From assembly GCA_029261195.1 (NCBI GenBank), contig JAJDBU010000059.1:147299-211298 (forward strand): a stretch of DNA of 64,000 nucleotides, given 5' to 3'. Below, one piece after another: positions 1 to 63,444 of this stretch; position 1 is the stretch's first letter, and each line of letters begins with the position of its first letter. The DNA comes from Nitrospirota bacterium. Lineage in GTDB: Bacteria > Nitrospirota > Nitrospiria > SBBL01 > JAADHI01. The notes under the pieces are model-generated. The model made no database searches. It was not told the origin of the DNA and was given only the letters and a program-made list of their open reading frames with translations. The translations under genes and the position numbers were made by a program.

Positions 1-1121
1 TGTGGTGAAATCAAAAGATCCTTCGTGGTTTCCCGGAAGCAGAAGCGCGAGAAGACCAAGTCGGAATTTGTTGGCGACGGCGCGTCAACAGAGATATCCA
101 GTGTGCGATCCAAGACATCTCGCAAGGATTCGGAAGCGACATGCCATTCCTGACGCACATGCCGGACGTGCAAATCCATCGGACCAATGCACCAACGTCC
201 CCGATGATCTCGTGGGACGGAAAACCTGCCCCACCAAGGTTTGACAGCAAGCCGTTGTGGGCCCACGATCTCGTCTTTCAAATCATTCAATTCTGATTCT
301 CCCCATCTTAAGGGATTAGACCCTATCCACAAAAAAGTAAAAAAAAAGAATAGCAGAAAGCAAGATCCAGTGCTCAAAAAAAGAGTCAATCGTCCTTCGT
401 CGACGCCCTTTCCTCAAACAAAACAAAGCCGCCAATCCGGACGCAGCGCAGACAGCATTCGTGAAATTTGAGCCGATGCCCATGGCAGGAACCGCAGCCG
501 GTCATCATCTTTTCGGGATTCGGGGCATCGTCAATCGCTTTGTCTTCCCATATATGTAATGCCTGCTTTCCCTTTGACCACAAAATTCCTGTTCTTCAGA
601 TACAATACTTTGCCCGCAGGACAGATGGGTCGTCCCAGCTTGTGAGCTGGGCATCTTCGCGCTTTCATTGTCGGTGATGTTGCTTTTGATGAGCTTGCCG
701 CTTTTTCCAGTTCTATCTTCGTTCTCTAATAGAAATTGTTTGATCTTTTCTGATTTTTTCCGGAGTTTTCTCAACTGCTTTTCTCTTTTTTCTTCTTCCG
801 ATTTTTCTGGTGTCGCGATCTGATCTTCTGCCCGGTGTCGCTTCAGGATATGACCGATGACTTTCTCTGGTTTTTCTTTTTTCTTTGCAAGGTCGGACTT
901 TGTGCCACTCCATTCTTTTGAGGCGTTTGGCGGATTCGATGTGATTTTAATCGGATCTAGATTGAATCCTAAAAATGTGCAGGAGCGAGATTTCTCATTT
1001 TGTTATCTCATGGAAATGGCCCAGCTTGGAAAGCAATTAAGAGTTGGCGGATATCGCAGCTGCCCGGTCACTGGGCCAAGCCGATATTGACAGCTCAGCG
1101 TCCCATCTCTACAATCCGCCC

Positions 1122-12981: not shown

Positions 12982-13052
12982 TGCTGTGGCTCTGAAGGGG
13001 CGACCCGGTAATGAACCAAACAAGAGACCGCTGGAAAAGGAGGAATGAAATA

Positions 13053-13394
13053 ATGGACCTATCGGAAAAAACCTGCACCGCCTGTCGCGTAGGTGCGCCT
13101 TTGGCGACGGAAGAAGAAATCGCCTTATTTTTACCCCAGATTCCAGAATGGAAGATCGTCGAGGTGGCAGGGGTCAATCAGCTCCGTCGGGTTTATGCCT
13201 TTGCCAATTTTGTGGATGCACTGGCTTTTACGAACAAGGTGGGGGCACTGGCGGAAGAGGCAGGTCATCATCCCGCCTTGCTGACGGAATGGGGACGAGT
13301 GACGACTTCCTGGTGGACACACAAGATCAAAGGGCTGCACGTGAACGACTTCGTCATGGCGGCTAAAACTGATCTGTTATTTCAGGCGCTCTGA
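13053..13394 (+). CDS. phhB: 4a-hydroxytetrahydrobiopterin (pterin-4a-carbinolamine) dehydratase
   Basis: EEAGHHPAL...W and W(W)THK motifs. AGGAGG Shine-Dalgarno lies upstream of the ATG at 13053. Confidence 0.85.
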   Translation: MDLSEKTCTACRVGAPLATEEEIALFLPQIPEWKIVEVAGVNQLRRVYAFANFVDALAFTNKVGALAEEAGHHPALLTEWGRVTTSWWTHKIKGLHVNDFVMAAKTDLLFQAL

Positions 13395-13430
13395 AAACGG
13401 TTTATTTTTTTGGGGTGTTGCGGAATTGGG

Positions 13431-13946
13431 TTAACCCACCCACTGTGAGATGGCACTGTAGCCTTTGGCAATATCTTGGGCGATGTTGATTCCGTTCTTA
13501 ATCCCTTTCACTGCTTTATGCAGCTTGGAATCTTTGTTTTCCAGTGCTTCGACTAAACGCCCTAAGCGCTTGGCGATGCCTTTCTTTTTGACTTCTTTTG
13601 GGTTCTTGAAGTTTTCAGCTTGCTCTAAGGCGATTGCGGCATTTTGGAGTTCTTTGGCTTCTTCTTCATCCCCTGCTTGTGTGAGGGATTGAGCCAAATC
13701 GTTTAAATCGCCCTGTAAGCCGATATTGCAGTTGTTGAAATTGAAAGTCGTATGTGTCGATTTATCAGCAATCAATTGATTTGCCTGTCCGCCTAACATC
13801 AAATTTTCAGTCTTTATGTCGTAATTATTAACCGTTTGGCTCAGATTGATTTTTTGTTTAGTAATGTATTCATAGAAAGGAACACTGTCTTTGGATTGAT
13901 TTAGAATCATGCTATCGGGTAACCACACTGGATGTTTCACCTCCAC
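13431..13946 (-). CDS. Hypothetical helical protein coupled to the Roc-COR GTPase
   Basis: 171-aa ORF overlapping the upstream stop by 10 nt. A GGAGG lies inside the overlap. Possible starts are GTG 13946, GTG 13928 and ATG 13910. The C-terminal half is K/E/A-rich and helical. No family recognised. Confidence 0.5.
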   Translation of the reverse strand: MEVKHPVWLPDSMILNQSKDSVPFYEYITKQKINLSQTVNNYDIKTENLMLGGQANQLIADKSTHTTFNFNNCNIGLQGDLNDLAQSLTQAGDEEEAKELQNAAIALEQAENFKNPKEVKKKGIAKRLGRLVEALENKDSKLHKAVKGIKNGINIAQDIAKGYSAISQWVG

Positions 13947-15985
13947 TTCTCGGGTATTTCCCCATAGCGCTCGATCCGATACTGCAACTCAGGCTTTTCG
14001 CTTTTGTAGCTATTAAAAATATCGTTGAGTGTTTCTCTTAATGTACTGATGTAGTTGGTTTTATCTGGGCCTTTCACTGAAACCGTGATGTCCCGATCTT
14101 CTTCCCGTACCAATGCCATACTTCCTTTGTCATCTTTTAGTAGCACACCATAACGCCAGACAACATATTTTCCTTTTTCTCTTTTTATTTGCTGATTGTG
14201 GCGGACGATGAAACGGGAAATCGTGTTGGGCGGCAAAGCTTGTTCTGCTTTGTATCGCAGCATCAAGCTTTCTCCTACAGGGAAATCGGGCAGTTCATTG
14301 GGGCGGTCTTCATTCAATAAATGAGGAATGACGAGTTTTTTTTCTTCCTTTGTTTCATAGGCCAACTCATAGTGTTTCATCAGCTTAAAAAGGAAGGGAT
14401 GTTTATCCTTTGGGTGGCGATTGCCGTCTTCTTTAAATACGACTTCAAACTCATCTAAAGTCAGTGAATACTTTTTTTCTTCATTGACCCAGTTGATGAT
14501 TTTATAGACACCGTGACTGATCCATTCGGGGTTCAGTACTAGGGTATCGATTTCCTTCATACCGCCGTACCACAAACTGACACCCAGATAATGCAGGTCT
14601 TTTAATATTTCATGGACATTGGCGATCTTATGTTTTTCTGCGATCTGGCGAAACTCATCTAAAGTGATGTGTTCTTGCCCCTTGTTCTTATCATTCTTGT
14701 CAAAAAGCTTTTCTAGTTCTTCTTTAACAAGGTAGTAGTTGGTGGGGATTTCTTGATTTTCCCAGGAGGGATTGGTTTTTATATAGTCTGCAACCTTATG
14801 GCGAAAGGCTTCTAGTTTCGTTTTGTCGTCTTGAATCGAAAAGGTGTAAACGCCCGCAATTGGATAGTTTTCTTTTAAGGTATTGATTTTAATATCTACA
14901 CTGTGTTGGTCACGTTTGTTGACTAAAATAATGGCTTGAGAATTACCTCCGTAATTTTTCATATGGTTGAGCCAATATTCCAACCTGTTTCTCTCTTCGG
15001 TTCGTCCATCATAGACCATGATATAAAGGCAGCGTTCTGATAAGAAAAATTGATGCACGGCATGGCTCACTGTGTGGCCTGCAAAATCCCAAATGCGTAC
15101 ATTAATATTATCTTCTTCCAATACCCACAGCGTCGTATCAACGCCTGCCGTGCTCTCATCATCCGTGGTCATGGGTGCATCGGGATCAATCAATCGTCTT
15201 GCGATACAGGTTTTCCCCGACCCTTTATCACCCAGGATAATAATCCGAGCTTCGTTGAGCCGCACCGCGCCTTGCGTTTCTAATGCTTCCAAATAGTTGG
15301 CGACTGCGGCAGCACCTTGCTCGCGGATTTCTTTTGGTACATTGATACGTCTTTCTAAGGCTTGTTGGTCTAGGACTAATCCACTATCAAAAATGCTCTG
15401 ATACAGGCGGCCCCAGTAGGCACAGCCTTCGTTTTTAAGCGCTTTTTGAAAATGATCCCAAGTCTCACAATACCAGTCAGTCGACTGACCTTGGTGCTCT
15501 CCTAGCTTTTTTTGTATATTCTTTAAATCTTGTAAAATTATAGATGCTAAATACCTATAATTTTGGGCATACACAGCGGCCGCGCGGGTGACGACCTTGG
15601 CTGCCTCGGTTTCTCCTTTAAGGTGGTGGGAGTGGCTCGCGTAGAAGACAGCTTCGGAAGCGACGGTGGCAACCTCTGCTGCCCCGATAGCCCCGGCGGT
15701 ACGAGCAGAGATGGCTGAGACGGAAACGGCGTCATAGGCGGAGAAGGCGTAGGCGGTGTAGAGGTGGCCGCCAAGGGTGGCTCCGTAGGCACACAGATCT
15801 AAAGCATAAAAAATACGCTGGATATGTCCTTGCCGATTTTTTTTAGACCAATAGTTGAAATCTCCCTCACTCCCCAAAAATGGCAAAGCCCGTACCGCAC
15901 AACGCCATGTAAAGTGTATAATTTGATCACGATCAAGTTGTTTTAATTCTTGTTCTATTTTTTTCTTAAACTTTTCTCTGTCCAT
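13937..15985 (-). CDS. Roc-COR (ROCO-type) small GTPase with an unassigned N-terminal helical domain
   Basis: G1 GDKGSGKT, G3 WDFAGH, and G4 NKRD. A COR-like region follows (LKDLHYLGVSLWY...LVLNPEWISHGVYKIIN). The first ~245 aa are Ala-rich, helical and contain no LRR. Confidence 0.75.
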   Translation of the reverse strand: MDREKFKKKIEQELKQLDRDQIIHFTWRCAVRALPFLGSEGDFNYWSKKNRQGHIQRIFYALDLCAYGATLGGHLYTAYAFSAYDAVSVSAISARTAGAIGAAEVATVASEAVFYASHSHHLKGETEAAKVVTRAAAVYAQNYRYLASIILQDLKNIQKKLGEHQGQSTDWYCETWDHFQKALKNEGCAYWGRLYQSIFDSGLVLDQQALERRINVPKEIREQGAAAVANYLEALETQGAVRLNEARIIILGDKGSGKTCIARRLIDPDAPMTTDDESTAGVDTTLWVLEEDNINVRIWDFAGHTVSHAVHQFFLSERCLYIMVYDGRTEERNRLEYWLNHMKNYGGNSQAIILVNKRDQHSVDIKINTLKENYPIAGVYTFSIQDDKTKLEAFRHKVADYIKTNPSWENQEIPTNYYLVKEELEKLFDKNDKNKGQEHITLDEFRQIAEKHKIANVHEILKDLHYLGVSLWYGGMKEIDTLVLNPEWISHGVYKIINWVNEEKKYSLTLDEFEVVFKEDGNRHPKDKHPFLFKLMKHYELAYETKEEKKLVIPHLLNEDRPNELPDFPVGESLMLRYKAEQALPPNTISRFIVRHNQQIKREKGKYVVWRYGVLLKDDKGSMALVREEDRDITVSVKGPDKTNYISTLRETLNDIFNSYKSEKPELQYRIERYGEIPEKWR

Positions 15986-16056: not shown

Positions 16057-17601
16057 CTAATTCCAGTGTCGCCAGCCTTTCAAATAATAGCTCAAGATCA
16101 GCGGACGATCGAGGGAGCTGTATTCAATGTTTTCTTCGATAAGGTCTTTCGCAAAGGTAAATAAAGAACTTGCGATCTTGTCCTCAAGGTAGCGCGTCGG
16201 TACTTCAATCTGAACAGAATCCGTATCCAGTTGCGCTTCAGAGGCTAGCACAAAACCCCAATCTCCAAAAGAAGGGATGTAGAGGTGGTAGGGATGGGTC
16301 TTCATTCCAGCTTCGGTGATTGTCGCATTGATGCACCAGAAGGCCTTTTTCGCAAAATAAGGGCTGGTTGCCTGCGTGAGAAAGATGCCCCCTTTATTCA
16401 GGCGTGAGCGGATCAGTCGATAAAATTCCCGGCTGTAAAGCCGCGAAAGAGACACGTTGTTCGGATCGGGCAGGTCTGAAATGATGATATCAAAAGGCTC
16501 TTTGACCTCTTTAAGGAAAACAAAGGCGTCTTCATTAAATATCGTGACTCGCTTGTCCTCAAGGCTTTCCCGATTCATTTCTCTGATGTACTTATTTTTC
16601 TTAGAGATTCGGATGATTTCCGGGTCGATATCGACCAGGGTAATCGATTCGACATCGTCATATTTCAGCATCTCCCGCACAGCAAGTCCATCTCCTCCGC
16701 CCAAAATGAGTATGTTTTTTCGTCTTGGTGCGAGGCTGAGTGGAATATGAACAAGGGCCTCGTGATAGCGGTATTCGTCAACGGAAGAGAATTGCAGGTT
16801 GCCGTCCAGAAAGAGGCGAACGTCGTCTTTTGCTTTGGTCAAAATGATCTTTTGGTACTTGGTTTGTAAGGAAAAAATAATCCGGTCTTCGTAGAGAGAG
16901 CTGCTCCACGCTTTCATGAGAAAAGGGGCCGTTAAAAAGAGGCCTGCGAGAACAATGCAAACGGCAGTCGATGCAATAGTATAAAGCCGTCTCCGGCCAA
17001 GATTAAGCTCATCTTTAAAACACCAGAGGTTCATGAATCCGATGCACATATTAATCAAACCGAAAAAAAGAGAGCTTTTAAATGTGCCTAAAAAGGGGAG
17101 GAGGAGAAAGGGGAAAAGCAGGGTGGCAATCAAGGCGCCCAGGTAATCAATGGAGAGTACGTTAGATATATTGATTTTCAAGGTGTAGTACTGCTCCATG
17201 ATACGTGTGAGCAGAGGGATTTCAAGGCCGATCAGTGTGCCGATGGAGAGAATCATGAGCACCATGAAGAGTGTGTAGGACTCGGTGTAGGCATAACAGA
17301 AGTAGAGAATGGGCACGGACATGCCGCCAAGGAAGCCCAGTGCAATTTCGACTGCGATGAATTTAGAGAGCAGGTTTGTTTTGATGAGACGTGAGATGTA
17401 GGAGCCGATGCCCATGGCCGCCATGTAAAGGCCGATGGTAATCGAAAACTGTTTAACGCTGTCACCTAAAAAGTAGGAGGACGCGGTGCTGATGAGCAGC
17501 TCATAGATAATCGAGCAAAGCCCCGCGATAAAGATTGAGGCCACCAGAATCGAGATTTCTTTTTTCGACTCTGCTTGTGTAAGCTGTGTCGTATGGTCCA
17601 T
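16057..17601 (-). CDS. Membrane-bound polyamine aminopropyltransferase (spermidine-synthase-like)
   Basis: About 7-8 N-terminal TM helices, then the SpeE core: ILILGGGDGLAVRE, VDIDPE, and IISDLPDP. The ATG at 17601 overlaps the upstream stop (TAATG). The longer ORF to 17751 is rejected. Confidence 0.8.
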   Translation of the reverse strand: MDHTTQLTQAESKKEISILVASIFIAGLCSIIYELLISTASSYFLGDSVKQFSITIGLYMAAMGIGSYISRLIKTNLLSKFIAVEIALGFLGGMSVPILYFCYAYTESYTLFMVLMILSIGTLIGLEIPLLTRIMEQYYTLKINISNVLSIDYLGALIATLLFPFLLLPFLGTFKSSLFFGLINMCIGFMNLWCFKDELNLGRRRLYTIASTAVCIVLAGLFLTAPFLMKAWSSSLYEDRIIFSLQTKYQKIILTKAKDDVRLFLDGNLQFSSVDEYRYHEALVHIPLSLAPRRKNILILGGGDGLAVREMLKYDDVESITLVDIDPEIIRISKKNKYIREMNRESLEDKRVTIFNEDAFVFLKEVKEPFDIIISDLPDPNNVSLSRLYSREFYRLIRSRLNKGGIFLTQATSPYFAKKAFWCINATITEAGMKTHPYHLYIPSFGDWGFVLASEAQLDTDSVQIEVPTRYLEDKIASSLFTFAKDLIEENIEYSSLDRPLILSYYLKGWRHWN

Positions 17602-17855
17602 TATTTCCCGGCGCGTGGCCCGCCACCCTGGCGACTCGAACCGCCGGTACTGCCGGATCTGACGCTGGGTGATCCGTAGTAGCGAGGTCCGCCGAAATAC
17701 CAGAAGGATGGTCCATAAGCATAACCGCCGTAGTATCCCGGATAGCCCCAACCCCGAAAACTGAGCGAAAACAGGAAGACATAAACCAGAACCAGAGCAA
17801 TGATGACGCCAAGAAAGACACCACCACCTTGGTTATTTAAGGGGCGTTTTAGCAT
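17601..17855 (-). CDS. Small membrane protein with Gly/Tyr-rich tail
   Basis: 84 aa with one TM helix (GVFLGVIIALVLVYVFLF) and then a G/Y/S-rich low-complexity tail. Translationally coupled to the spermidine-synthase-like gene. Confidence 0.5.
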   Translation of the reverse strand: MLKRPLNNQGGGVFLGVIIALVLVYVFLFSLSFRGWGYPGYYGGYAYGPSFWYFGGPRYYGSPSVRSGSTGGSSRQGGGPRAGK

Positions 17856-17897
17856 CTTGAGTTTTTTATTTCTGATTTCAATTTTTTCTTCCTAATT

Positions 17898-18461
17898 TCA
17901 ATAGGGACGACCATAAGATTTTAAGGAACTCACGCTTGAAGCGGCAGCCATTTGATAGAGGATGACACCCAGAATTAATGCAATCACACCAGCGGTAAAA
18001 AGCGGCACAGAACTGCCCCCTTTCTGTTTTCCGATGATCTGAATGCTTCCAGTCACCTGGCTGACCTGTTCCGCCTCAAATCCGAGATAATAAGTCCCCT
18101 TTTGAAGCAAGACCTTGATCGTATAGTCGGTTTTACTTTCCGACCATGAGCCGCCGTCGTCATAGCCTGATTCGGCCCAGAATTCCTCTCCGAAACTGAA
18201 AAGGTGGTTTTTCTGTTCGTCAAGTACGGAACCTTCAACCTGGTTCCATGCACCGCTACTTCTGATATCCTGTGCGACGGTGATCTGGTAAACGGTTCGG
18301 TCTTTTTCAATCATGATCGGCCCGACGATTCCTCCCTTCGGGGATAAAATTTCAGAGATCTCGCCGCCGGTTGAGACATTAAAAAAAAGGGCCGATACAA
18401 AACTCAAAATGGCAAAAGCAATCAAGGCCATCGCCGCCTGTTTTTTGTCTTTATTGTTCAT
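17898..18461 (-). CDS. Hypothetical bitopic membrane protein
   Basis: 187 aa with N- and C-terminal TM helices flanking a ~130-aa soluble domain. Sits inside the pspA cluster. No family recognised. Confidence 0.55.
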   Translation of the reverse strand: MNNKDKKQAAMALIAFAILSFVSALFFNVSTGGEISEILSPKGGIVGPIMIEKDRTVYQITVAQDIRSSGAWNQVEGSVLDEQKNHLFSFGEEFWAESGYDDGGSWSESKTDYTIKVLLQKGTYYLGFEAEQVSQVTGSIQIIGKQKGGSSVPLFTAGVIALILGVILYQMAAASSVSSLKSYGRPY

Positions 18462-18487
18462 TTCTTCTCTTTTGGGGTATCACCAAA

Positions 18488-19348
18488 TTAAGCCATTGTA
18501 AAAAGTAGAATGACTGAAAAAGAAATTGCTGCAACCATTTCAAGTAAACCTGCACCTAGGTTGCGATCATTTTGAATCTCATGGTTGAGAGAAGCTTTAG
18601 GCATCATAATCCTGTCGAAAAAGAACCGGACCATCGGTAGGAGAACAAAGACCAAAAGAACATCCATCGCAAAAACAGAAAGATTATGACCCCAGTCGAC
18701 AAAGTGTCCCGAGGACCCTTTCATGAGGATGATGCCAACCGCAATTAAGGTCCCGCCGAAGGCGACCCCTGCCGCGATGTTGTCCCGTTCAATCTCATCA
18801 TGAATATCAAAAGGAGTGACCCAATTGTAGATCTTTGTAAACAGGATGAGTGCAATCTGTCCGAGCGCAAAAAAGACGAGCAGGGTATGAATGCCTCCCC
18901 CTTCACCGTGAATGGAGCCTGCCACAATCAATCCGGATGCGAAGTAGGAACCAAACTGAACTGCGCCGGTGCCGGCGTTTCGGTCTTCGATAATCTCTTT
19001 GACGTTTGAAAAGCTGTGCAGGATGAAGCGGTCGTTGATTAAGCGGGAGAGATTCAATAAAAAGATCCCTAGGAATGAGTAGCCCCCGACGACCATCAGG
19101 TCGTTTAGAATCCCCTTTGAAGGACCTAAGAGGCTGCCGACAAAGATGATGGTCGTCGCGCCCAGATAGCCTGCCATGCTGGTTGCTAAAGCGACGTTGT
19201 CTTTTTCGTGCAGTTCTTCATCAATTTTATAGGGGGTGAAATAGTCATTGATCATTTTAGAAAGCAGGAGGACGAGCAAGTAAAGCAGGATGAGACTGCC
19301 ACCATGCAGCAGTTCGTAAGCGATGCCTTCTTCATAACCTTCCATCAT
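18488..19348 (-). CDS. DUF350 (YjfL-like) membrane protein, duplicated domain
   Basis: Polytopic membrane protein with two DUF350-type motifs: DNVALATSMAGYLGA and DNIAAGVAFGGTLIA. Confidence 0.6.
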   Translation of the reverse strand: MMEGYEEGIAYELLHGGSLILLYLLVLLLSKMINDYFTPYKIDEELHEKDNVALATSMAGYLGATTIIFVGSLLGPSKGILNDLMVVGGYSFLGIFLLNLSRLINDRFILHSFSNVKEIIEDRNAGTGAVQFGSYFASGLIVAGSIHGEGGGIHTLLVFFALGQIALILFTKIYNWVTPFDIHDEIERDNIAAGVAFGGTLIAVGIILMKGSSGHFVDWGHNLSVFAMDVLLVFVLLPMVRFFFDRIMMPKASLNHEIQNDRNLGAGLLEMVAAISFSVILLFTMA

Positions 19349-28611: not shown

Positions 28612-29005
28612 ATGCGGAAAACAAAAGGCGAATCGGAGGCTGAAATCAGTAAGGCCTTCATTCACTTTGAAAAAGATTTTATGGGCCGGGGTCCGACGGC
28701 ATGTAAAACCTATAAAAACCTATATATGGATGACATCATTCTCGTCCGCCTAAAAGGCGTTTTGACCCCGGCTGAGCAGCATTTGTCAAAGAATTCGGAA
28801 GGCAGAGAGTTAATCAAAAGGGTGAGGGCCAACCTCATTGAAAATGCCAGAACACTGCTGGCAGAGGTGATTGAAAAGGTGGTTGCCGTGAAGTTTACAA
28901 GCCTCCATACCGACATCAGCACCAAGACCCAAGACTGGCGAACGAGTAATCATCTTCACACTCACTGAAAACCTGGAAGCCCGCTACACGACACTTTCCT
29001 CTTGA
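28612..29005 (+). pseudogene. DUF2294 / MpsC-like protein gene, frameshifted by a 7-bp tandem duplication
   Basis: The N-terminal 105 aa match the MpsC family (EAEISKAFIHFEKDFMGRGP...VRLKGVLTPAEQHL...SLHTDISTKT). The expected continuation GERVIIFTLTENLE is encoded at 28937..29005 in another frame. CCAAGAC is duplicated at 28922-28928 and 28929-28935. Confidence 0.7.
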
Positions 29006-29179
29006 CCTCAGTATTTTGCCCATTGTTTAATATCTTCAGCGGATGACTTTCTGAAATCCCTTATTTAATCAGGGAAGTGGGACAGTCAGCCGCCGCAATA
29101 TATAAACTCGAACTTTTAAATAAAATCGACAAGCCACTATGGATCTCTTGTTATTTGAGGAAGGCCGGAGTGGAAGGTG

Positions 29180-29219
29180 GGCCGGCAAAACTTTGATCAA
29201 AGGAATGCTGGCTTTTTTT
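29180..29219 (+). terminator. Rho-independent terminator / attenuator candidate 30 nt upstream of dabB
   Basis: GCCGGCA (29181-29187) pairs with TGCTGGC (29206-29212), including one G-U pair. Inner CTTT/AAAG helix with a GATC loop. Followed by TTTTTTT (29213-29219). Confidence 0.6.
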
Positions 29220-29248
29220 ATACCCTTTTGAATTAAGGACCCGCTCTC

Positions 29249-30979
29249 ATTCAAAACGTCGTCGCCACCCTCTCAATTCTGATTCCCCTTCTCCCGCTAC
29301 TAGCGGGTCTCCTGATTCCAACCCTGGGAAAGCGAATCGGTGAGCGTGTCTACCTTGTCGGCCTTACCGCGCAGATTATCGCCTTCTTCACAAGCCTGCT
29401 GGCGCTCTATCAAGTGAGTGTCGGTGCGGCCATCCAGATCAATCCCCTGTCCTTTCTGGAAAACGGTATCATGCACGCAGGTCTTTTCATCGATCGCCTG
29501 GCTGCTGTCATGATGGTGCTGGTGACTTCGGTCAGCATTGTCATCCATGTTTTTGCCTCACGTTATCTTCAGGAAGAACAAGGCTTTACCCGCTTCTACA
29601 CCCTGCTCTCGCTCATTACCTTTACGCTGCTGGCCCTGGTTGCAAGCCCGAACCTGCTGATGCTCTTTGTCTTCTGGCAGCTACTGGGCTGGCTGCTTTA
29701 CTTGCTGCTGGCCTACAACATCACCCATCTTCCAAGCGCTCAGGCGGCCTTTAAAACCCTGATTATTCTTCGTGTCGGAGATGTTTTTTTTCTGGGCGGC
29801 GTCATCCTGGCCTATCTTATTTTCGGGACCCTCGATTTTCCCCTACTCTTTGAGAAAGCTGCGGCAGGTCCGATTCCACTTCCTCTTCTTCCGGGAGGCT
29901 TGCTCTCCATTGACGCAGTCACGGCCATCACCCTGCTGATTTTTGTGGGGGCGATGAGCAAGTCGGTCCAATTCCCCTTCCATGTCTGGCTGCCCGATAC
30001 CATGTATGGCCCCTCTCCGGTCTCGGCCCTGATGCACGCGGGTATTGTGAATTCCGGCGGATTTTTATTGAATCGCTTAGCCCCCCTCTACGGGCTTTCC
30101 TCTCCCAGCCTCCACGTGGCCTTTGCGGTCGGCGCGTTCACGACCTTCCTTGGGGCGATCATCATGCTCACTGTGAACGATGTCAAAAAGATGCTCGGCT
30201 ACTCGACTATTGCACAGATGGGCTACATGATCATGGAGTGCGGATTGGGCGCCTTTGCCCTGGCGATCTTCCACTTCATCGCCCACGGCTTGTTTAAAGC
30301 GACCCTCTTTTTAAGCTCGGCCAGCGCCATCGGCGCGGCCCGGAAGGAGCCAAAATTCCCGCATCACGGAGTAGACGATGCCATACCCCCTGCGCCATTC
30401 TCCGTCCTGACCTGGAGTACCGGGCTTGTTACGACCCTCCTGCTTCCCCTGCTTATTTTATTGTCCGCCCATGATCTTTTTCATATCCCGCTGGTCGGGG
30501 CAGGAGCGCATGGGGCCGTCATCTTTCTCTTTTTCTCCTGGGTCACCTCGTCACAGGCCATCCTCAGCCTCTACCGTCTCAATGCAGTGTCCTCCTGGAA
30601 GGTGGCGGGAGCGATGGTGCTGACGCTGATCCTCATTGTATTTACTTACCTCTGGGCGGGAGAACTCTTCACCCATTTCCTCTATCCCGATCCGGGCCTG
30701 GCTGCCTATTATTTTGAGGTCGCAGCATTGCACCCGCTTTTATTCGACCTTGCCATCATCGTTGCGACCTTAGGTACCGTCCTCATCTGGGTCAATCTCT
30801 ACGCCGAGGCCCACGGAAAACGACGAGAGAAACCGGCTTGGATGTCCGCGCTTGAAGAAAAGACCTATGTGTTTTGCATGAAGGGCTTCTATATCGACGG
30901 ACTCTATCAGCGCCTGAATCAAAAAGTGCTTCATGTCATCCAGGTGATTGATAAACGCTATTTGGCGAGGATTCCATAA
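29249..30979 (+). CDS. dabB: DabB / MpsA-like proton-conducting membrane subunit (NuoL/MnhA family)
   Basis: Typical antiporter-like core (WLPDTMYGPSPVSALMHAG, GYSTIAQMGYM). The frame is open from 29237 and encodes a canonical NuoL-type N-terminus (ILIPLLPLLAGLL) upstream of the GTG at 29414. The only start-like codon there is ATT at 29249, 10 nt after AAGGA. Confidence 0.7.
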   Translation: MQNVVATLSILIPLLPLLAGLLIPTLGKRIGERVYLVGLTAQIIAFFTSLLALYQVSVGAAIQINPLSFLENGIMHAGLFIDRLAAVMMVLVTSVSIVIHVFASRYLQEEQGFTRFYTLLSLITFTLLALVASPNLLMLFVFWQLLGWLLYLLLAYNITHLPSAQAAFKTLIILRVGDVFFLGGVILAYLIFGTLDFPLLFEKAAAGPIPLPLLPGGLLSIDAVTAITLLIFVGAMSKSVQFPFHVWLPDTMYGPSPVSALMHAGIVNSGGFLLNRLAPLYGLSSPSLHVAFAVGAFTTFLGAIIMLTVNDVKKMLGYSTIAQMGYMIMECGLGAFALAIFHFIAHGLFKATLFLSSASAIGAARKEPKFPHHGVDDAIPPAPFSVLTWSTGLVTTLLLPLLILLSAHDLFHIPLVGAGAHGAVIFLFFSWVTSSQAILSLYRLNAVSSWKVAGAMVLTLILIVFTYLWAGELFTHFLYPDPGLAAYYFEVAALHPLLFDLAIIVATLGTVLIWVNLYAEAHGKRREKPAWMSALEEKTYVFCMKGFYIDGLYQRLNQKVLHVIQVIDKRYLARIP

Positions 30980-30980
30980 A

Positions 30981-32180
30981 ATGAAAAAGGTCGCCCTGGG
31001 AATCACCCTCGCAACGCACATCGGCCTTTCGGTCTTTTTATCCGGAGGGACGACTTCATTGATGACCCCGCTTGTCCTCCTGCTTCCCCTTGCGGCCACG
31101 TTCACGCTTCTTGCCGCTGATGGACATCTGACGGACAGGGCAGAGCTGCTCACTCTCCTACTCCTTCTGTGTCTTGGCCTGGGCTTCATGATGCTACCAG
31201 GCGGGGCGAGTCTTCTTGCCCTGGGTGGGGTTTTCATTGTCTTGATTGTGCTGCTGTTTCGAGAACAAAGCCGGTCCCGTTTTTCGGTACTTTGGGGTAT
31301 CGGACTCTATGGATTCGCACTGGCGGCCCTCTTTGCCTCTTTTGCAGTCTCTTCCCCGACAGCATCTACTCTATTGTTCATAGCCTATGCCATTCTTCTT
31401 CCCACTTGTCCGCTGCATGGGGCATCCATCGTGTGCGCAAGTCGTCTGCGGGGGATTCCGCCTAATTTTCTTGCGCTCTTTTTGCCGATACTGGGACTGC
31501 ACGGAGCCTTGGGTATCCTCCCCGACCTACCCTCTGCACTCATGAATGTCGTGTCTGTTTTTGCCTTGATCGGCGCGCTTTACGGCGGCATTCGGGCAGT
31601 GGTTCAAACCAACATCCGCCATCGATTGGCCTATGCCGCACTCAGCTTCTGGTCGATTCTCTGGTGGTATCTTGCCTCTCCCGGCATGGAGGCAGCGACG
31701 GCGATGCTTTACCTCTGCGCCCTCGGTCTTATCATGCAGGGACTCTTTGTCAGCGTACAACTACTGGAAAAACGTCATGGCCTGCTGAATCTCGATCAAT
31801 TGGGCGGACTGGCTCAGGTCATGCCTCGTTTCGGTGTCTTATTGAGTCTGCTGGTTGCAGCAGGCATGGGCCTGCCCCTCTTCGGTTCTTTCACAGCCTT
31901 GCTTGCCATGGCGACCTCTCCGGCAACCACACTTTCATGGGGTTTTGTGCTTGTCCTCCTGGCCTGGCTCCTGTCCTCCTGGCATTTTCCCCTTTTCATG
32001 CAGCGCATTCTCATGGGTCCGCCGAAACCCGATAGAATCTACCGCGACCTGGACCGAAGCGAAACCCTTTCTTTAACTCTAATTGTCGTGATGATCGTGA
32101 TACTGGGAATTGCGCCACAAGTCCTTATCGGCTCAGCACAGACACTTTCCGTTCAGAAGGCCAACTCCCGGATAAAATAG
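30981..32180 (+). CDS. Second, short antiporter-like (NuoM/NuoN/MrpD family) membrane subunit
   Basis: The ATG at 30981 lies 1 nt after the dabB stop. Core motifs: RHRLAYAALSFWS, LGGLAQVMP, and GLPLFGSFTALLAM. About 12 TM helices. Confidence 0.6.
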   Translation: MKKVALGITLATHIGLSVFLSGGTTSLMTPLVLLLPLAATFTLLAADGHLTDRAELLTLLLLLCLGLGFMMLPGGASLLALGGVFIVLIVLLFREQSRSRFSVLWGIGLYGFALAALFASFAVSSPTASTLLFIAYAILLPTCPLHGASIVCASRLRGIPPNFLALFLPILGLHGALGILPDLPSALMNVVSVFALIGALYGGIRAVVQTNIRHRLAYAALSFWSILWWYLASPGMEAATAMLYLCALGLIMQGLFVSVQLLEKRHGLLNLDQLGGLAQVMPRFGVLLSLLVAAGMGLPLFGSFTALLAMATSPATTLSWGFVLVLLAWLLSSWHFPLFMQRILMGPPKPDRIYRDLDRSETLSLTLIVVMIVILGIAPQVLIGSAQTLSVQKANSRIK

Positions 32181-39245: not shown

Positions 39246-41573
39246 TTATTCCGGTACCGGAACGAAACCGTCCCTCAGTTCTTCCGGCCCCACCGTTACT
39301 TTTCCGCCATTGCTTTGCATGAATGCAATGATCGTCAGTAGTTCCTGCTCTGAAAGCCCGATGGGCGGTTTATTGATGACGGGCATTTGTGCTGAAAACT
39401 CAACCGGCTTTCCAGCATCGAAGTCCAGTTTGACATAGGCCGCAGGCTTGACCAGCGCCTCATGGATAAACTCACGGGTTAATCGCGCCCCCACCCCGGA
39501 AAGGTTCGGACAACGACCTTGGCCCGGACCGATGGCGTGGCACAAGGCGCACTGGCCCTTGCTGTAGAATATTTCCTGCCCGATTTGAACCAGATCATCT
39601 TTGGTTTTAATCTTTGTCAGATCCAGGGCCTTCTTTTCGGGAGGTAAGCCGATCTTCTGCGGCACTTGGTAGCCGATATAGGCGTAGGCGAATAAAAAGA
39701 CGCTGACAACGCCGACGACTTTCAGAATCACAAAACGGGGACGACCGGCATCCTTTGCAGTATCTTTTCGATGCTCAGGCCGATGCTCACCAAAGAGATC
39801 CACAAGATACATCAAGACAGAAGGAATAAAAAAATAGCGTGTAGAAAAGCGATTGAGGCGTATCGTGTGTGAAGTCCAAAAAATAATGCCGACTAAAAGA
39901 AAAAAAATCGCCGTACTCATCACAAAAAGGGCGGAAGCGACCCCTAAAGTCGGCGTATAAGCATAAGCAGAGGTATCTTCCATGACCCCATAGATATGCC
40001 AGTGCACACGCGATGCGGAACGGGCATAGCCCATCATGGACATGGTTAAAACGACGAAGACCGCATTGACGATCAGCGCATACTGGGAGCGTTTCGGCAT
40101 CACGCCCCACTTCATTTCATGTGTCAGTTTTGCCGACCTGAGAGAAAGGGCCGTCAGCGGTGTGATCGTACAAAGAACGAAGAGAACCGCGAGGACCTGA
40201 GCCACGGAAAGCACATTCACCCGATAGACAGAGGGAACGAAATAACCGTAAACCCCGAGCCAGATGATGTAGACCACTGCGCCGCTAATCAGAACAACCG
40301 TAAAAATATTCGCCGCCTTCCCCCATTTCACCGTCACCACCTTGTCTGCACGCCAATAGAGGATGAAGCAGATGAAGGTCGTGATAATCATGAGGTTCAC
40401 AGCCGTCAACTTGGCCGACATCACCCCGAAGACTCCAAGCAGAGGATGGTGCGCCCCCCCCATCGCCCTTTCCTCGGCAACACTGGCTACAAGAGAATGA
40501 GGCGTCAGCCAAACCGCAAAAGAGCCGACTAAAACCACGAGCATAATGACAATGGGCATCTTGTACTTTTGGGCGGAGGAAGTTCGATAGGCGATCCCCT
40601 GCCAGAAATAGTAGTTTGCCCCGACGAAAAGCACGCCGATGAGCACCGCCTGGAGGATGAAAAGCCAGGAGAGGATGCCTCCCATGAGCATAATCCCCAT
40701 CTGCTGGTTATATTCATAGATTTCGCGCATCAGGTAGTAGCCCGCGAAAGGCATCGGAAGGATCCCGAAAACACCGATAAAATTTCCGGTATAGCCCATC
40801 CAGTCGTAATGTTCCCGCTCTTCCTGTGTTTTTGCGCCTAAATACGCAACCCCGGCATAAGCACCGCAGACAAAGCCTCCCAGAACAATATTGCCGACAA
40901 TTCGGTGTATATTCACGGGCCACCATGTCGGGTTGTTCATGGCGGCCCAGGCCCGTTCCCACTCCCCTAATTCCGGATTCAAGACCACGGGGCTTGCCTG
41001 GAAGGAGAGAAAACCACTCGGAAGACACATCACCGCAAATCCGAAAAGATTGAGCATCACCCCCCAAAAAACATGAAGGGCTTTTCGATCCTTCCATTTT
41101 TCCCACTTGGACCAATAGTAGTAGATCGAGGTTGTCTCGCCTATAAACAGGCCGAGATAGACGTAGTAGGCCGGCTTAAAGATGCCTGTCATCACGCTCA
41201 TGAGTTCAGGATAAAAAACGAGGAGCGTAAAAAGAAAAAGCATCCCAAGCGTTGCAGTCGTTGCAAAACAGGCGACGATCAGGTCGGTAAATTCCTTGGC
41301 GAGACGGTCATAGCGTTTTTCACCGGTTGAAATGCCGATGATTTCGACAATGAGGACAAATATGGGCACACCCAACACGAATGCGCCGAATAAGATGTGC
41401 AACTGGGCTAACATCCAGATCAGATTACGGCTGCCGATGCCAGCGATATCGCGATAACGCACAGCAGAGCCGGTCTCCGCAAAGACCACTGTTGAAGGGA
41501 GCAAGAGCAGCGCCATTAAAAGGAAGACCGCCCAAACAACTGAATTATTATATTTTTTAATTGAATTTCTCAT
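39246..41573 (-). CDS. Cytochrome bd-like oxidase subunit I homolog fused to a C-terminal class I cytochrome c domain
   Basis: CydA-like N-terminal helices (AQLHILFGAFVLGVPIF; NPTWWPVNIHRIVGN) and about 14 TM helices. The C-terminal domain has CALCH plus a distal Met (AQMPV). No cydB-like gene is adjacent. Confidence 0.7.
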   Translation of the reverse strand: MRNSIKKYNNSVVWAVFLLMALLLLPSTVVFAETGSAVRYRDIAGIGSRNLIWMLAQLHILFGAFVLGVPIFVLIVEIIGISTGEKRYDRLAKEFTDLIVACFATTATLGMLFLFTLLVFYPELMSVMTGIFKPAYYVYLGLFIGETTSIYYYWSKWEKWKDRKALHVFWGVMLNLFGFAVMCLPSGFLSFQASPVVLNPELGEWERAWAAMNNPTWWPVNIHRIVGNIVLGGFVCGAYAGVAYLGAKTQEEREHYDWMGYTGNFIGVFGILPMPFAGYYLMREIYEYNQQMGIMLMGGILSWLFILQAVLIGVLFVGANYYFWQGIAYRTSSAQKYKMPIVIMLVVLVGSFAVWLTPHSLVASVAEERAMGGAHHPLLGVFGVMSAKLTAVNLMIITTFICFILYWRADKVVTVKWGKAANIFTVVLISGAVVYIIWLGVYGYFVPSVYRVNVLSVAQVLAVLFVLCTITPLTALSLRSAKLTHEMKWGVMPKRSQYALIVNAVFVVLTMSMMGYARSASRVHWHIYGVMEDTSAYAYTPTLGVASALFVMSTAIFFLLVGIIFWTSHTIRLNRFSTRYFFIPSVLMYLVDLFGEHRPEHRKDTAKDAGRPRFVILKVVGVVSVFLFAYAYIGYQVPQKIGLPPEKKALDLTKIKTKDDLVQIGQEIFYSKGQCALCHAIGPGQGRCPNLSGVGARLTREFIHEALVKPAAYVKLDFDAGKPVEFSAQMPVINKPPIGLSEQELLTIIAFMQSNGGKVTVGPEELRDGFVPVPE

Positions 41574-43117
41574 GTCACATGCCTTAAAAACGCAAGGCGT
41601 TTAACCAAACACATAAATACAGCGCTTCCTTTTCTGTAGAAATAATCCGTATCCAGACTGATCTGCTTTTCCGGCTTCAACTTCTTCAAGAACAGCATAA
41701 AGGCCAAGAGCGTAAAACCCAGATACTGAAAGGCTTCAACGAGGTGGCCCATCGTGTAGGGATGATAGTCCATTGGATGGGGCAGCATGTCATAGAGCAA
41801 TCCGGGAAAAAGGCCAAAAGAGACACAGATCAATGCAAGAATTCTCATTGCCCACAACATGTGAGCAGGCGGATCTTTCGCCGTAATTTTCCAGCCTTCC
41901 CCCCGAGCTTCTCCAAGAAAAATCGTATAGATGAGTTTCAAGGGTGTCAGCCAGGTCCCGCAGGCGGCAAAGACAAGCATCAATATCACCCAGCCCTGAT
42001 GTGCTTCAGCCGCAGCTGAAACAACAATCGACTTGCTCACAAATCCCAGAAGCGGGGGCAGACCCGCAATGGAAAAGCCCCCGATCACGAACAGAAGAAA
42101 GGTCCAGGGCATACTTTTGTAAAGCCCTCCCAGCTCGCTTTGCTTTCGCCCTCCCGTCATGTGGGTGACGGAACTGATACCCATCATGAGCAGGGCCTTA
42201 TAAATAATATTAGTGAACGCGAGGGAGACCGCGCCGTTGATTCCCAGCGCAGTGCCGATACCGATCCCTGTAATCATGTATCCGTTCTGACTGATCAGAT
42301 GGTAACACCAGGCCCGTTGACAATTATTTTCATTGACCACATACATCACGCCGTAAACCGCCATAACGGCCCCCAGGACAATCAGGATGGGCGTTCCGGG
42401 AAAACCGCGAATCAAGGCATAAATCGCCGTCTTTGTTGTAAAGACACTCAGAAAAATTACACCGGTCAATGTTGCTTCGGGATAGGCATCTGCCAGCCAG
42501 GCATGAACCGGCGGCACTGCCGCGTTAATCAGGAAGCCCATGAGCATCATGATCGGGCCTAATCCCATTTGCGGAAAAGCATCAAATGTGATTCCGCCAC
42601 CACTCGCGACATGCATCGTAATCCCGCCAAGCAGTAAAATTCCGCCGGTAATGTGAACCAGCATATAACGCATGCCGGCAGCATTAGACGCTTTTCCCCC
42701 CCGTAACCAAATCAAGAAGACAGAGGAAAACGAAGCAATTTCCCAGAATAGAAAGAAGGTAAAGAGGTCGCCCGCAAAGACCGCACCCACTGCACTGCCG
42801 ACGTAGAGCAGCGCGGCCATATGTTCACGGCAATCTTTCACATGTAAAGCAAAGACAAAGCTTGCAAAAGCACTCACCATAAAAACAGCGCCGAATCCTA
42901 GGCTTAATTTGTCGACACGACCGAAGATCAGGTCATGACCGATAAAAGGAAGGACACCATGTGTTCCCTGCGAAGCGGAAAGGATTGCAAGCAAGCCCAG
43001 CGCTGGGATCGAAAGCAGCAGCGCAGAACGGCTTCTTCCTTTTACAAGGGGAAGAAGCGCTGCGCCAAGATAGAAGAACAGGGAGGGTTGCACCCACTCA
43101 ATCATCGTTATTCTCAA
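41570..43117 (-). CDS. MrpD/NuoN-type antiporter-like membrane subunit (2)
   Basis: Proton_antipo_M-type core: FFLFWEIASFSS, PVHAWLADAYPEA, and GGLYKSMPWTF. Its stop overlaps the bd-like oxidase start (ATGA). Confidence 0.75.
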   Translation of the reverse strand: MRITMIEWVQPSLFFYLGAALLPLVKGRSRSALLLSIPALGLLAILSASQGTHGVLPFIGHDLIFGRVDKLSLGFGAVFMVSAFASFVFALHVKDCREHMAALLYVGSAVGAVFAGDLFTFFLFWEIASFSSVFLIWLRGGKASNAAGMRYMLVHITGGILLLGGITMHVASGGGITFDAFPQMGLGPIMMLMGFLINAAVPPVHAWLADAYPEATLTGVIFLSVFTTKTAIYALIRGFPGTPILIVLGAVMAVYGVMYVVNENNCQRAWCYHLISQNGYMITGIGIGTALGINGAVSLAFTNIIYKALLMMGISSVTHMTGGRKQSELGGLYKSMPWTFLLFVIGGFSIAGLPPLLGFVSKSIVVSAAAEAHQGWVILMLVFAACGTWLTPLKLIYTIFLGEARGEGWKITAKDPPAHMLWAMRILALICVSFGLFPGLLYDMLPHPMDYHPYTMGHLVEAFQYLGFTLLAFMLFLKKLKPEKQISLDTDYFYRKGSAVFMCLVKRLAFLRHVT

Positions 43118-43123
43118 ATTTCA

Positions 43124-44662
43124 TCAGCCTGTCACCTGTTTAATCAGATCCAGAAAAAGGTCCGGGAAAATCCCCAATAGAATAGAAAGTGCAGCCGTCA
43201 CGCACAAAGGAATCACACAAAACAGGGGCTCCTTCACTCGGATTTCAGGCACAGGGAATTCAGTCCCCTCCAAGCCTCGCCCTCCGCCTTCCTCAAGGCC
43301 ATCTTTGTCCCCTGCAAGGGCAAGCGACAGCCTCTTGTCAGGCGCCTTAAAAAAAGCCTGATGGACAATCGGTAAAAAATAAAAAGCGTTTAATAAACCA
43401 CTGCTGAGCATCACAAAAAACATGGGCGCCTGATTGGCCTCAACTGAACCCAGCAACAAATACCACTTGCTTAAGAAGCCGGCAGAGGGTGGCACGCCAA
43501 TCATGCTCAAGCTTGCAATGGCAAAGGCCCCCATCGTCCAGGGCATCTGCCGACCCATGCCATTGAGTTGAGACACCTTGGTCTTTTGCGTCGCCACATA
43601 GATTGCACCCGCACAGAAGAAGAGTGTGATTTTAGAAACCGCATGATTGACAATGTGTAAAATACCGCCGGTCAGCCCGCTGGAGCTTAGGAGCACCGCG
43701 CCCAAGACCATGTAGGAAAGCTGACTCACCGTAGAATAGGCAATCCGTTCCTTGAGGTTATCCCGCGACAAGGCATAGATCGATGCCATAATAATCGTAA
43801 AACCGGCGAGGGTGCTGGCAATTGATCCGACATTCAGGGTCTTCAGCAGGTCCACACCGAAGGTATTGAGGACAACGCGCAAAATACAAAATGCTCCGGT
43901 ATTCACCACTGCAACGGCATGCAGGAGCGCACTGACCGGTGTGGGGGCAACCATGGAAGCAGGTAACCAGGCAGAAAAAGGCATCAGCGCCGTCTTGGTC
44001 GCGCCGAAGAGGAAAAGGAAAAAAATAAGGACCAGGGTGCTTGATGCCATATCCGCAGGGAAAATGCCGCTTGCCGTAAAATCAAGTGTTCCAGCGTGGT
44101 AGTAGCTTAAGAAAATGGCGATTCCCAGGAAAACCTTCGAGGGCGCCATCAGATATAAGAGGTACTTATTCCCTCCAAGCCAGGCCTCCTTTGTTTCATG
44201 ATGCACGACCAGAGGGTAGGTAAAGAAGGTAATCAGTTCATAAAAGAAAATGAGCGTCAACCAGTTATTGGAAAAAGCCGCCCCCATGGTCGCAAACAGC
44301 GTCACTGCAAAAAAGAAATAGAAGCGGGTCTGTGAATGCTCATTGAGGCCGCGCATATATCCGATAGAGTACAAGGTGGTCAAGATCCAGGTAAAGGAGG
44401 AGACTAGGGCAAAAAGCAGCCCCAGGCCATCCACCCGGAAGCCCGTGGGAACAGAAGGCCATATCGTGAAGAGGGTATAACGAAGGGTTTTCCCCTCAAG
44501 GACGGGGGGGATCATGCTCAGCACAGCAAAAAACATCAAGACCCCTGCCACAAGGGAACATCCCTCCCGAAGATTTTTATGCTTCCGGGTGACAAGGATC
44601 AGCAGGGCCCCGATAAAAGGGATCAATGCTGCGACAAAGGGTTTGATGGATTCCATTTCCAT
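43124..44662 (-). CDS. MrpD/NuoM-type antiporter-like membrane subunit (1)
   Basis: FFYELITFFTYPLV, FSAWLPASMVAPTPVSALLHA, RIAYSTVSQLSYM, and LNGMGRQMPW. It sits 6 nt upstream of the next gene. Confidence 0.75.
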   Translation of the reverse strand: MEMESIKPFVAALIPFIGALLILVTRKHKNLREGCSLVAGVLMFFAVLSMIPPVLEGKTLRYTLFTIWPSVPTGFRVDGLGLLFALVSSFTWILTTLYSIGYMRGLNEHSQTRFYFFFAVTLFATMGAAFSNNWLTLIFFYELITFFTYPLVVHHETKEAWLGGNKYLLYLMAPSKVFLGIAIFLSYYHAGTLDFTASGIFPADMASSTLVLIFFLFLFGATKTALMPFSAWLPASMVAPTPVSALLHAVAVVNTGAFCILRVVLNTFGVDLLKTLNVGSIASTLAGFTIIMASIYALSRDNLKERIAYSTVSQLSYMVLGAVLLSSSGLTGGILHIVNHAVSKITLFFCAGAIYVATQKTKVSQLNGMGRQMPWTMGAFAIASLSMIGVPPSAGFLSKWYLLLGSVEANQAPMFFVMLSSGLLNAFYFLPIVHQAFFKAPDKRLSLALAGDKDGLEEGGGRGLEGTEFPVPEIRVKEPLFCVIPLCVTAALSILLGIFPDLFLDLIKQVTG

Positions 44663-63367: not shown

Positions 63368-63444
63368 TGGTCGGGACGACTGGATTTGAACCAGCGACCT
63401 CTCGCACCCCAAGCGAGTGCGCTACCAGGCTGCGCCACGCCCCG
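63368..63444 (-). tRNA. tRNA-Pro (anticodon GGG), CCA encoded
   Basis: The reverse complement reads CGGGGCG TG GCGC AGCCTGGTA GCGC A CTCGC TTGGGGT GCGAG AGGTC GCTGG TTCAAAT CCAGT CGTCCCG A CCA. This is a cloverleaf with anticodon loop TTGGGGT. Confidence 0.9.

Follow-up and report, generated by a model that had tools for sequence, protein, structure and literature searches.

A 64,000-nucleotide (nt) stretch of contig JAJDBU010000059.1 (positions 147,299 to 211,298), from an assembly of a Nitrospirota bacterium (GCA_029261195.1), carries on its reverse strand what an earlier note described as a module of two genes: a Roc-COR GTPase of 682 amino acids (aa) with an unassigned N-terminal domain and, overlapping its 3' end, a small helical partner or effector of 171 aa. 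Here "the window" denotes this whole 64-kb stretch, and positions are counted from its first letter. The two open reading frames (ORFs), hereafter ORF1 and ORF2, are real, as is the rest of the reported arrangement. The frames overlap by 10 nt (13937-13946), a GGAGG lies within the overlap at 13944-13940, and the pair is flanked by phhB (Pterin_4a, pterin-4a-carbinolamine dehydratase; 13011-13394) and a spermidine synthase gene (16057-17751), with spacers of 36 nt on the phhB side and 71 nt on the spermidine synthase side. At its 3' end, ORF1 runs through three out-of-frame codons (KWR) into a TGA. We consider it probable that the locus holds one gene and not two, namely a Roco gene split by the loss of a single nucleotide. 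The copy is most probably a pseudogene of recent origin, or at best a truncated and crippled gene.

As a query, the 682-aa protein retrieved 378 significant relatives, and nearly all of the 120 listed are 800-900 aa long. Together, ORF1 and ORF2 amount to 853 aa (682 + 171), which compares with ~850-870 aa for single-protein homologs that are colinear through both frames. In direct alignment, the homologs compared read unbroken from '...RIERFGxIPDE' into 'VEAKHPVWLPD...'; in the window, ORF1 terminates as '...RYGEIPEKWR' and a stop codon, and the frame of ORF2 reads '...TREVEVKHPVWLPD'. Insertion of one base after CCCGAG produces a single ORF of 851 aa. The closest intact relative (P0002, at locus L086; 859 aa) is 77.9% identical to the window in nucleotide sequence over 2601 nt, and the coding regions of the two differ by indels of 3, 15, and 3 nt, each located in the variable N-terminal core, and by a gap of a single nucleotide in the window sequence at ~13950 (Table 1).

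The comparison was extended to 80 loci from GTDB species-representative genomes (38-76% identity), which were compared with the repaired protein by tblastn. A single high-scoring segment pair in one frame crosses residues 660-720 in 73 of these loci, and a break at residue 681 occurs in none of the 80. The segment pair reaches the C-terminus in 64; in the others, the contig ends, a different C-terminal domain is present, or the frame shifts at another place (L050, at ~708-722). Because the sequence of ORF2 is fused in frame in the homologs, the "partner" appears to be the C-terminal ~170 residues of the same protein, out of frame after the 1-nt deletion. The overlapping helical effector and the multi-gene module of the earlier note therefore give way to one interrupted protein, and its small ORF is not conserved as a separate gene beside Roc-COR. 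Some relatives matched by the 171-aa ORF carry COR-B or EAD11, and the ~150-250-aa "homologs" of ORF2 on longer contigs are fragments of genes broken at other positions (L005 at ~689-704, L003 at ~655-672, and L004 in several frames). Recurrent splitting at a fixed junction (several ~175-aa homologs begin near 'PLWLPD') was also considered, and was rejected once the frames were mapped.

A single alignment joins the repaired protein to CtRoco, the Roco protein of Chlorobaculum tepidum that serves as a bacterial model for LRRK2 (query residues 216-847 versus 8r4b_A 423-1089, E 4e-38). The break aligns to ~904-907 of 8r4b, or native CtRoco residue ~900, although the local alignment is weak and the mapping approximate. 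Residues 892-940 of CtRoco COR-B form the dimerisation element described from cryo-electron microscopy (cryo-EM) (PMC11052575). With the break at ~900, the cut therefore lies inside COR-B, not between domains. A complete COR-B, including the dimerisation segment, in one polypeptide with Roc is thus absent from the window copy and present in 73 of the 80 homolog loci.

A second lesion was found at the 3' end of the gene. The C-terminus of the family is near-invariant ('...AQW.GLPQVPKPFLK(K)' and stop), with 'LPSVPPVLL' as its counterpart in CtRoco. The window product stops at '...SQWVG', with a premature TAA at 13433-13431. In the ~33 nt that follow this stop, ~18 of 33 positions match L086 versus 26 expected (p = 0.002), and the ancestral AAA AAA TAA is still recognisable, its stop at 13404-13402. 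Since the terminal lesion consists of multiple substitutions together with a net loss of 4 nt, one read error cannot explain it.

These comparisons bear directly on the possibility that the locus is a genuine two-gene system, in which a Roc-COR GTPase is translationally coupled to a small helical effector or partner. Such a system would be consistent with the 10-nt overlap, with a GGAGG followed by a GTG at 13928, and with the 165-aa product given by a gene caller; in addition, the tail encoded by ORF2 occurs in trans elsewhere, in EAD11-tail proteins and in one free-standing 173-aa copy. The GGAGG, however, is a product of Val-Glu-Val codons, and homologs with Val-Glu-Ala would hold it too. 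As it arises from coding codons, it is no evidence for translational coupling, and co-translation of the pair by means of this motif, which had been thought likely, was not borne out. The in-frame fusion in the homologs, the position of the cut within COR-B instead of at a domain boundary, the destruction of the terminal motif of the tail, and the lack of a PADLOC match all argue in the same direction, and the natural in-trans forms use an EAD11 adaptor pair that is absent at the locus. Judged by the continuity of the homologs, the 73 loci, and the DNA alignment to L086, a two-gene system appears to be largely refuted, and we regard it as very unlikely.

Synthesis of the full-length protein by a programmed -1 ribosomal frameshift or by transcriptional slippage is hardly credible. 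The frames do overlap, the full protein would be regained by a -1 shift, and a Shine-Dalgarno-like GGAGG lies nearby. Yet the permissive stretch before the ORF1 stop contains no X_XXY_YYZ heptamer, and a scan of ~85 nt around the break found no homopolymer that reaches 5 nt. By homology, the shift would fall between 'IPE' and 'EVEV', in the sequence CCCGAGAAG. Moreover, the homologs encode the protein in a single frame, and other loci break elsewhere.

It is also conceivable, though improbable, that the gene of the organism is intact (~851-862 aa) and that the base at 13950 is wrongly missing through an assembly or sequencing error. The lesion is a one-base gap, all other indels relative to the closest relative are multiples of three, and the remainder of the gene is undecayed: only 4 of 158 columns (>=90% conserved) are changed in the window copy, all conservatively, as compared with 8.9 in the average homolog. 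Because the coding sequence is otherwise pristine, either the gene was inactivated only very recently or the 1-nt gap arose in assembly. This lack of decay weighs against a pseudogene, and so do three observations on the downstream fragment. The GTG at 13928 is a possible start for ORF2, 11 nt past the GGAGG; the NCBI annotation includes the 165-aa product, and the fragment may be expressed; and the free-standing 173-aa copy at L001 has an intact motif and no Roc-COR upstream, which makes a stand-alone form potentially viable. On the other side, the gap is outside any homopolymer and the five A7-A8 runs of the gene are all in frame. With no homopolymer at the gap, a homopolymer-type assembly error does not fit. 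The identical 682-aa product was obtained from both NCBI and Logan, which probably draw on the same underlying reads, and the separate multi-substitution lesion at the 3' end removes a near-invariant motif. We therefore retain a recently inactivated copy as the most likely explanation, with an assembly error less likely.

Table 1. Features of the Roc-COR locus and its surroundings (window positions), with mean identity to the window copy by region across 106 full-length homologs
Feature	Positions	Strand	Residues	Mean identity	Remarks
ORF1	13937-15985	-	682 aa		N-terminal helical domain, Roc, COR-A, and most of COR-B
ORF2	13431-13946	-	171 aa		frame-shifted continuation: remaining COR-B, linker, C-terminal tail domain
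1-nt deletion site	13949-13951	-			window CCC GA- GAA GTG; L086 CCC GAT GAA GTG
Degraded remnant of LPQVPxPFLKK and stop	13402-13433	-			premature TAA, net 4-nt loss
N-terminal orphan all-alpha domain	15251-15985	-	1-245		
Hypervariable N-terminal core	15551-15793	-	65-145	0.15	Ala/Ser/Tyr/Thr/Asp/Asn-rich
Roc G domain	14909-15247	-	247-359		Pfam Roc E 1.2e-25; GDKGSGKT, DFAGH, NKRD
COR-A	14315-14746	-	414-557		Pfam E 5.3e-25
COR-B, Pfam-matched part	13994-14272	-	572-664		Pfam E 1.9e-13; domain continues into ORF2
C-terminal tail helical bundle	13434-13745	-	ORF2 68-171		pLDDT 83-94
N-terminal domain, first part			1-64	0.52	
N-terminal domain, last part			146-245	0.55	
Roc region			246-400	0.76	
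COR-A region			401-560	0.61	
COR-B region			561-680	0.71	
Linker			681-745	0.36	
Tail			746-851	0.54	
187-aa protein	17898-18461	-			hydrophobic N- and C-terminal stretches; unannotated
DUF350 protein	18488-19348	-			part of block 16057-19348

The identity of ORF1 as a Roc-COR GTPase was confirmed by Pfam matches to Roc, COR-A, and COR-B, all above the gathering score, and by the G motifs in the translation. Its N-terminal domain, predicted to be all-helical, is indeed unassigned: residues 1-245 matched nothing in Pfam, NCBIfam, PADLOC, or PHROGs, and a profile of the domain matched nothing among PDB sequences. Weak matches to YscE, TPR, and DUF4404 in the PADLOC, NCBIfam, and PHROGs comparisons for the locus were rejected as coiled-helix noise. 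An AlphaFold2 model of residues 1-245 has 13 helices (predicted local distance difference test (pLDDT) 84; predicted template modelling score (pTM) 0.84). Comparison of this model with PDB and BFVD by Foldseek yielded no informative neighbour (best E 0.7-1.4); the sole compact match, to the DUF416 protein 2q9r (prob 0.47), was judged uninformative. Used alone as a query, the N-terminal 245 aa retrieved fragments that contain Roc and nothing else, hence no new architecture. Within the family, the length of the hypervariable core ranges from 19 to 114 aa; the core is 36% Ala and rich in Ser, Tyr, Thr, Asp, and Asn, and is flanked by well-conserved helices. A low-complexity, Ala-rich stretch could vary without selection, and the variability may reflect either diversifying selection or low-complexity drift.

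In the structure predicted for ORF2, a short alpha/beta element that makes up the remainder of COR-B is followed by a disordered linker and then by a C-terminal helical bundle, modelled with confidence at residues 70-170. With this model, Foldseek found only generic four-helix bundles (E >= 0.47), and the 171-aa ORF had no significant family match of its own in Pfam, NCBIfam, PADLOC, or PHROGs. Its family profile does match CtRoco residues 961-1104 (E 1.6e-9). The C-terminal region of CtRoco showed no cryo-EM density and was removed for crystallisation (PMC11052575). When 1.84 billion cluster representatives were searched, the tail, a domain with no Pfam model, was found in 683 proteins (396 at E <= 1e-10), nearly always at the very end of the chain. 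Of 39 scanned tail proteins that lack the COR-B portion of the profile, 16 are pentapeptide-repeat proteins, five are leucine-rich repeat (LRR)-Roc-COR proteins, and two have receiver domains, while PAS or HEAT domains occur in others. The pentapeptide-repeat tail proteins (within P0182-P0323) have an extra conserved block, 'RSIEFPPEY..AG..IL.YFG'.

The C-terminal position is not always occupied by the tail. In the close paralogs P0071, P0098, and P0118, it is replaced by Pfam EAD11 (E down to 2e-20), and further alternative C-termini occur in L077-L080. Conversely, P0157 and P0160 are EAD11 + tail proteins, the former being encoded beside an EAD11-ABC ATPase. The EADs, EAD11 included, were defined in predicted conflict systems (PMC7159879, PMC8195603). 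No EAD11-tail gene was found beside the Roc-COR-EAD11 paralogs.

Two of these loci deserve description in their own right. At L002:1789-5233 (GCA_024223855.1, 'Candidatus Brocadiaceae bacterium'), an EAD11-ABC_tran ATPase of 424 aa and a 416-aa protein without a Pfam match accompany P0157, and this three-gene cluster looks like a system coupled through adaptors, in which the same tail domain is employed in trans. The free-standing ORF2 homolog at L001:7911-8522 (ERZ26168053 contig_26, 3.1 Mb) is 173 aa long (up to 203 aa), with its LPQVPKPFLK end intact. The same contig encodes a family member, P0004 (1023 aa), and the small copy may be either a relic or a genuine stand-alone form. P0004 itself has an insertion of ~170 aa between a partial first tail start ('DFRDNNISLQGNLNELGQ') and a complete tail ('NFRDCNIGLQGNLNELAQ'), an internal partial duplication.

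Roc, COR-A, and COR-B of CtRoco (PDB 8R4B/C/D, 6HLU, 3DPU) are colinear with those of the window protein, and the ~150 residues at the end of CtRoco are homologous to the family tail, including the ...AxxYNxxAxxxxLPxVP motif. Where CtRoco has LRRs, the N-terminus of the family is formed by an orphan helical domain whose core is hypervariable; the window copy differs further in being split by the frameshift in COR-B and in having lost the terminal motif. CtRoco passes through a GTP-driven dimer-monomer cycle (PMC11052575, PMC5714945), and by homology such a switch would be expected in the family. Among solved structures, the best match is Roc-COR-A of Methanosarcina barkeri Roco2 (4WNR; E 4.5e-49 over residues 217-556), which takes in the helix before Roc (PxEIxxQGxxAVxNY) but spans Roc-COR-A alone, with nothing that corresponds to the tail or to the N-terminal domain. 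Eukaryotic ROCO proteins (LRRK2, LRRK1, and DAPK1) have the Roc-COR tandem in common with the family (E ~1e-13 to LRRK2), which, unlike them, is without a kinase and without LRR, ANK, or WD40 repeats and has a tail of bacterial type.

A similar overall layout is found in the AP-GTPase conflict proteins, which are computational predictions. They were predicted to combine a fast-evolving N-terminal LRR sensor, Roc-COR, and a C-terminal slot for at least 24 effector domains or EADs (PMC8195603). The family has the matching single-chain arrangement of an N-terminal module that may be fast-evolving, Roc-COR, and an exchangeable C-terminal slot, EADs among its occupants, and it has multiple paralogs and a patchy spread as well. 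In contrast, the N-terminal module is an LRR there and not in the family, and the tail is not among the named effectors. By this analogy, the family would fit the AP-GTPase template, except that its N-terminal domain is of another kind and its tail is unnamed. The likeness to the modules in PADLOC that combine an NTPase with a small partner is superficial, being confined to a P-loop NTPase gene that overlaps a small ORF.

The composition of the locus is atypical, as had been noted from its low G+C content. The G+C fraction of the Roc-COR segment is 0.433, compared with 0.484 for the window (lowest 0.6% of same-size windows); its tetranucleotide distance is in the top 0.8%; and the G+C fraction at third codon positions (GC3) of the gene is 0.456, the lowest among 39 long ORFs (mean 0.539, standard deviation 0.042). 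A scan of the locus for promoters and terminators was uninformative (three found versus 5.4 expected, with no terminators), and the Rfam scan gave no match in the Roc-COR region. On the spermidine synthase side of the gene, the block of DUF350, 187-aa, and spermidine synthase (speE) genes is conserved at 45-89% identity in >20 metagenome loci; its spermidine synthase is long and N-terminally extended. In all relatives' loci that extend past speE (~12 with several kb downstream), neither the Roc-COR gene nor phhB is present there. The exact empty site, with phhB beside speE, was not found, the relatives sharing only the DUF350, 187-aa, and speE side.

At 40-76% identity, the family is distributed over more than 12 phyla, among them Bacteroidota, Planctomycetota, Desulfobacterota, SAR324, Gammaproteobacteria, KSB1, Ignavibacteriota, Fibrobacterota, Spirochaetota, Firmicutes, and Cloacimonadota, as well as Bathyarchaeia. 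At least three loci each are present in SAR324 PL24a_bin.25, Cytophagales UBA9432, and Dokdonia. Because of the atypical composition, the end of synteny with relatives at the gene, and the identity across phyla, the Roc-COR gene looks horizontally acquired, in agreement with the earlier note. Homologs in two Candidatus Bathycorpusculum metagenome-assembled genomes (MAGs; L069 and L081) show ~40-45% identity and occur alongside those of Firmicutes, Fibrobacterota, and Bacteroidota MAGs. These Bathyarchaeia and bacterial MAGs apparently come from similar samples (termite-gut-style isolate codes), which suggests cross-domain transfer within a habitat. Family copies adjoin transposases at L004:3073-6465 (ISL3) and L087:5216-6459 (ISAZ013/DDE_3). 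At L004, the copy lies in pieces in three or more frames, and broken copies seem to be common in the family.

Clustering of the neighbours at 79 loci revealed no conserved neighbour gene; the best cluster, a generic ABC ATPase, covers 5 of 79. The 125 nearest neighbours are mostly housekeeping genes, with a few integrase, HTH, and RadC genes and ~5 that are defence-like, and no defence-island enrichment was found among them. For either ORF, PADLOC-DB v2 contains no matching family at E <= 1, and PHROGs gave no meaningful match. Of the proposal that a GTPase-switch module for defence or signalling had been wedged into this site, the GTPase stands and its horizontal acquisition is supported; the multi-gene module is not, and neither a PADLOC match nor an enrichment for defence genes was found.

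From the intact homologs, the family may be described as widespread, horizontally mobile, single-chain bacterial Roco proteins of ~855 aa, predicted to consist of a helical N-terminal domain with a hypervariable core, Roc, COR-A, COR-B, a linker, and a helical-bundle tail that ends in LPQVPxPFL. In the genome of the window, one base would have been lost at ~13950, with the result that translation from the ATG ends at residue 682; what remains of COR-B, together with the tail, would then lie out of frame as the 171-aa ORF, with the terminal motif destroyed as well. How the intact protein works can be suggested from its homology with CtRoco and from the logic of domain swaps set out by Kaur et al. 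(PMC7159879, PMC8195603). The variable N-terminal domain may take the place of the LRR and provide input or autoinhibition. Roc-COR would be a GTP-driven switch that, as in CtRoco, alternates between a monomer and a dimer formed through COR-B. The tail may represent an output slot, for an effector or adaptor, which is filled by EAD11 in close paralogs and may also be supplied separately as an EAD11-tail protein.

Whether such a protein would act in conflict can be weighed from several sides. That the intact family consists of ordinary cellular GTPases for signalling or regulation, and not of conflict or defence proteins, has in our estimate somewhat less than an even chance. The mostly housekeeping neighbours, the absence of PADLOC and PHROG matches, the fusion of the tail to receiver, PAS, and HEAT domains, and the lack of a known defence role for CtRoco are all consistent with ordinary signalling. 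Less easily reconciled with it are the patchy distribution across phyla and domains at high identity, with multiple paralogs per genome; the hypervariable N-terminal core; the exchange of the tail for EAD11, a domain of predicted conflict systems (PMC7159879, PMC8195603); and the copies that lie beside transposases or integrases and are often broken. The neighbourhood data are neutral between defence and ordinary signalling. We tentatively raise the rather doubtful possibility that the intact family constitutes undescribed single-chain Roco immune-type sensors, with the hypervariable helical N-terminus for recognition in place of the LRR and the tail as a new module, portable between proteins, for output or as an adaptor. 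In that case, the C-terminus of the main bacterial LRRK2 model would gain its first functional handle through the tail. As for the window, the apparent operon of an NTPase and a partner is probably a frameshifted single gene, and it would be wrong to include it among candidate two-component defence systems. Because the tail is shared with CtRoco and swapped for EAD11, the N-terminus is orphan and hypervariable, and the family is widely transferred, the intact homologs, not the window copy, are reasonable candidates for a bacterial Roco role in conflict or defence.

Elsewhere in the window, a 374-aa protein encoded on the forward strand within 10916-12981 matches only the middle of GyrA/ParC (DNA_topoisoIV, positions 130-313 of 432), and its gene overlaps that of a 314-aa MobA-like nucleotidyltransferase (a marginal Pfam match) by 4 nt, an unusual pairing. 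The other strongest tetranucleotide outliers are at ~29000-31000 and ~41500-44000, and the ORF at 29237-30976 has the highest GC3 in the window (0.657). A tRNA-Pro (GGG) gene on the reverse strand at 63368-63444 is the sole RNA gene found in the window by Rfam and ARAGORN.

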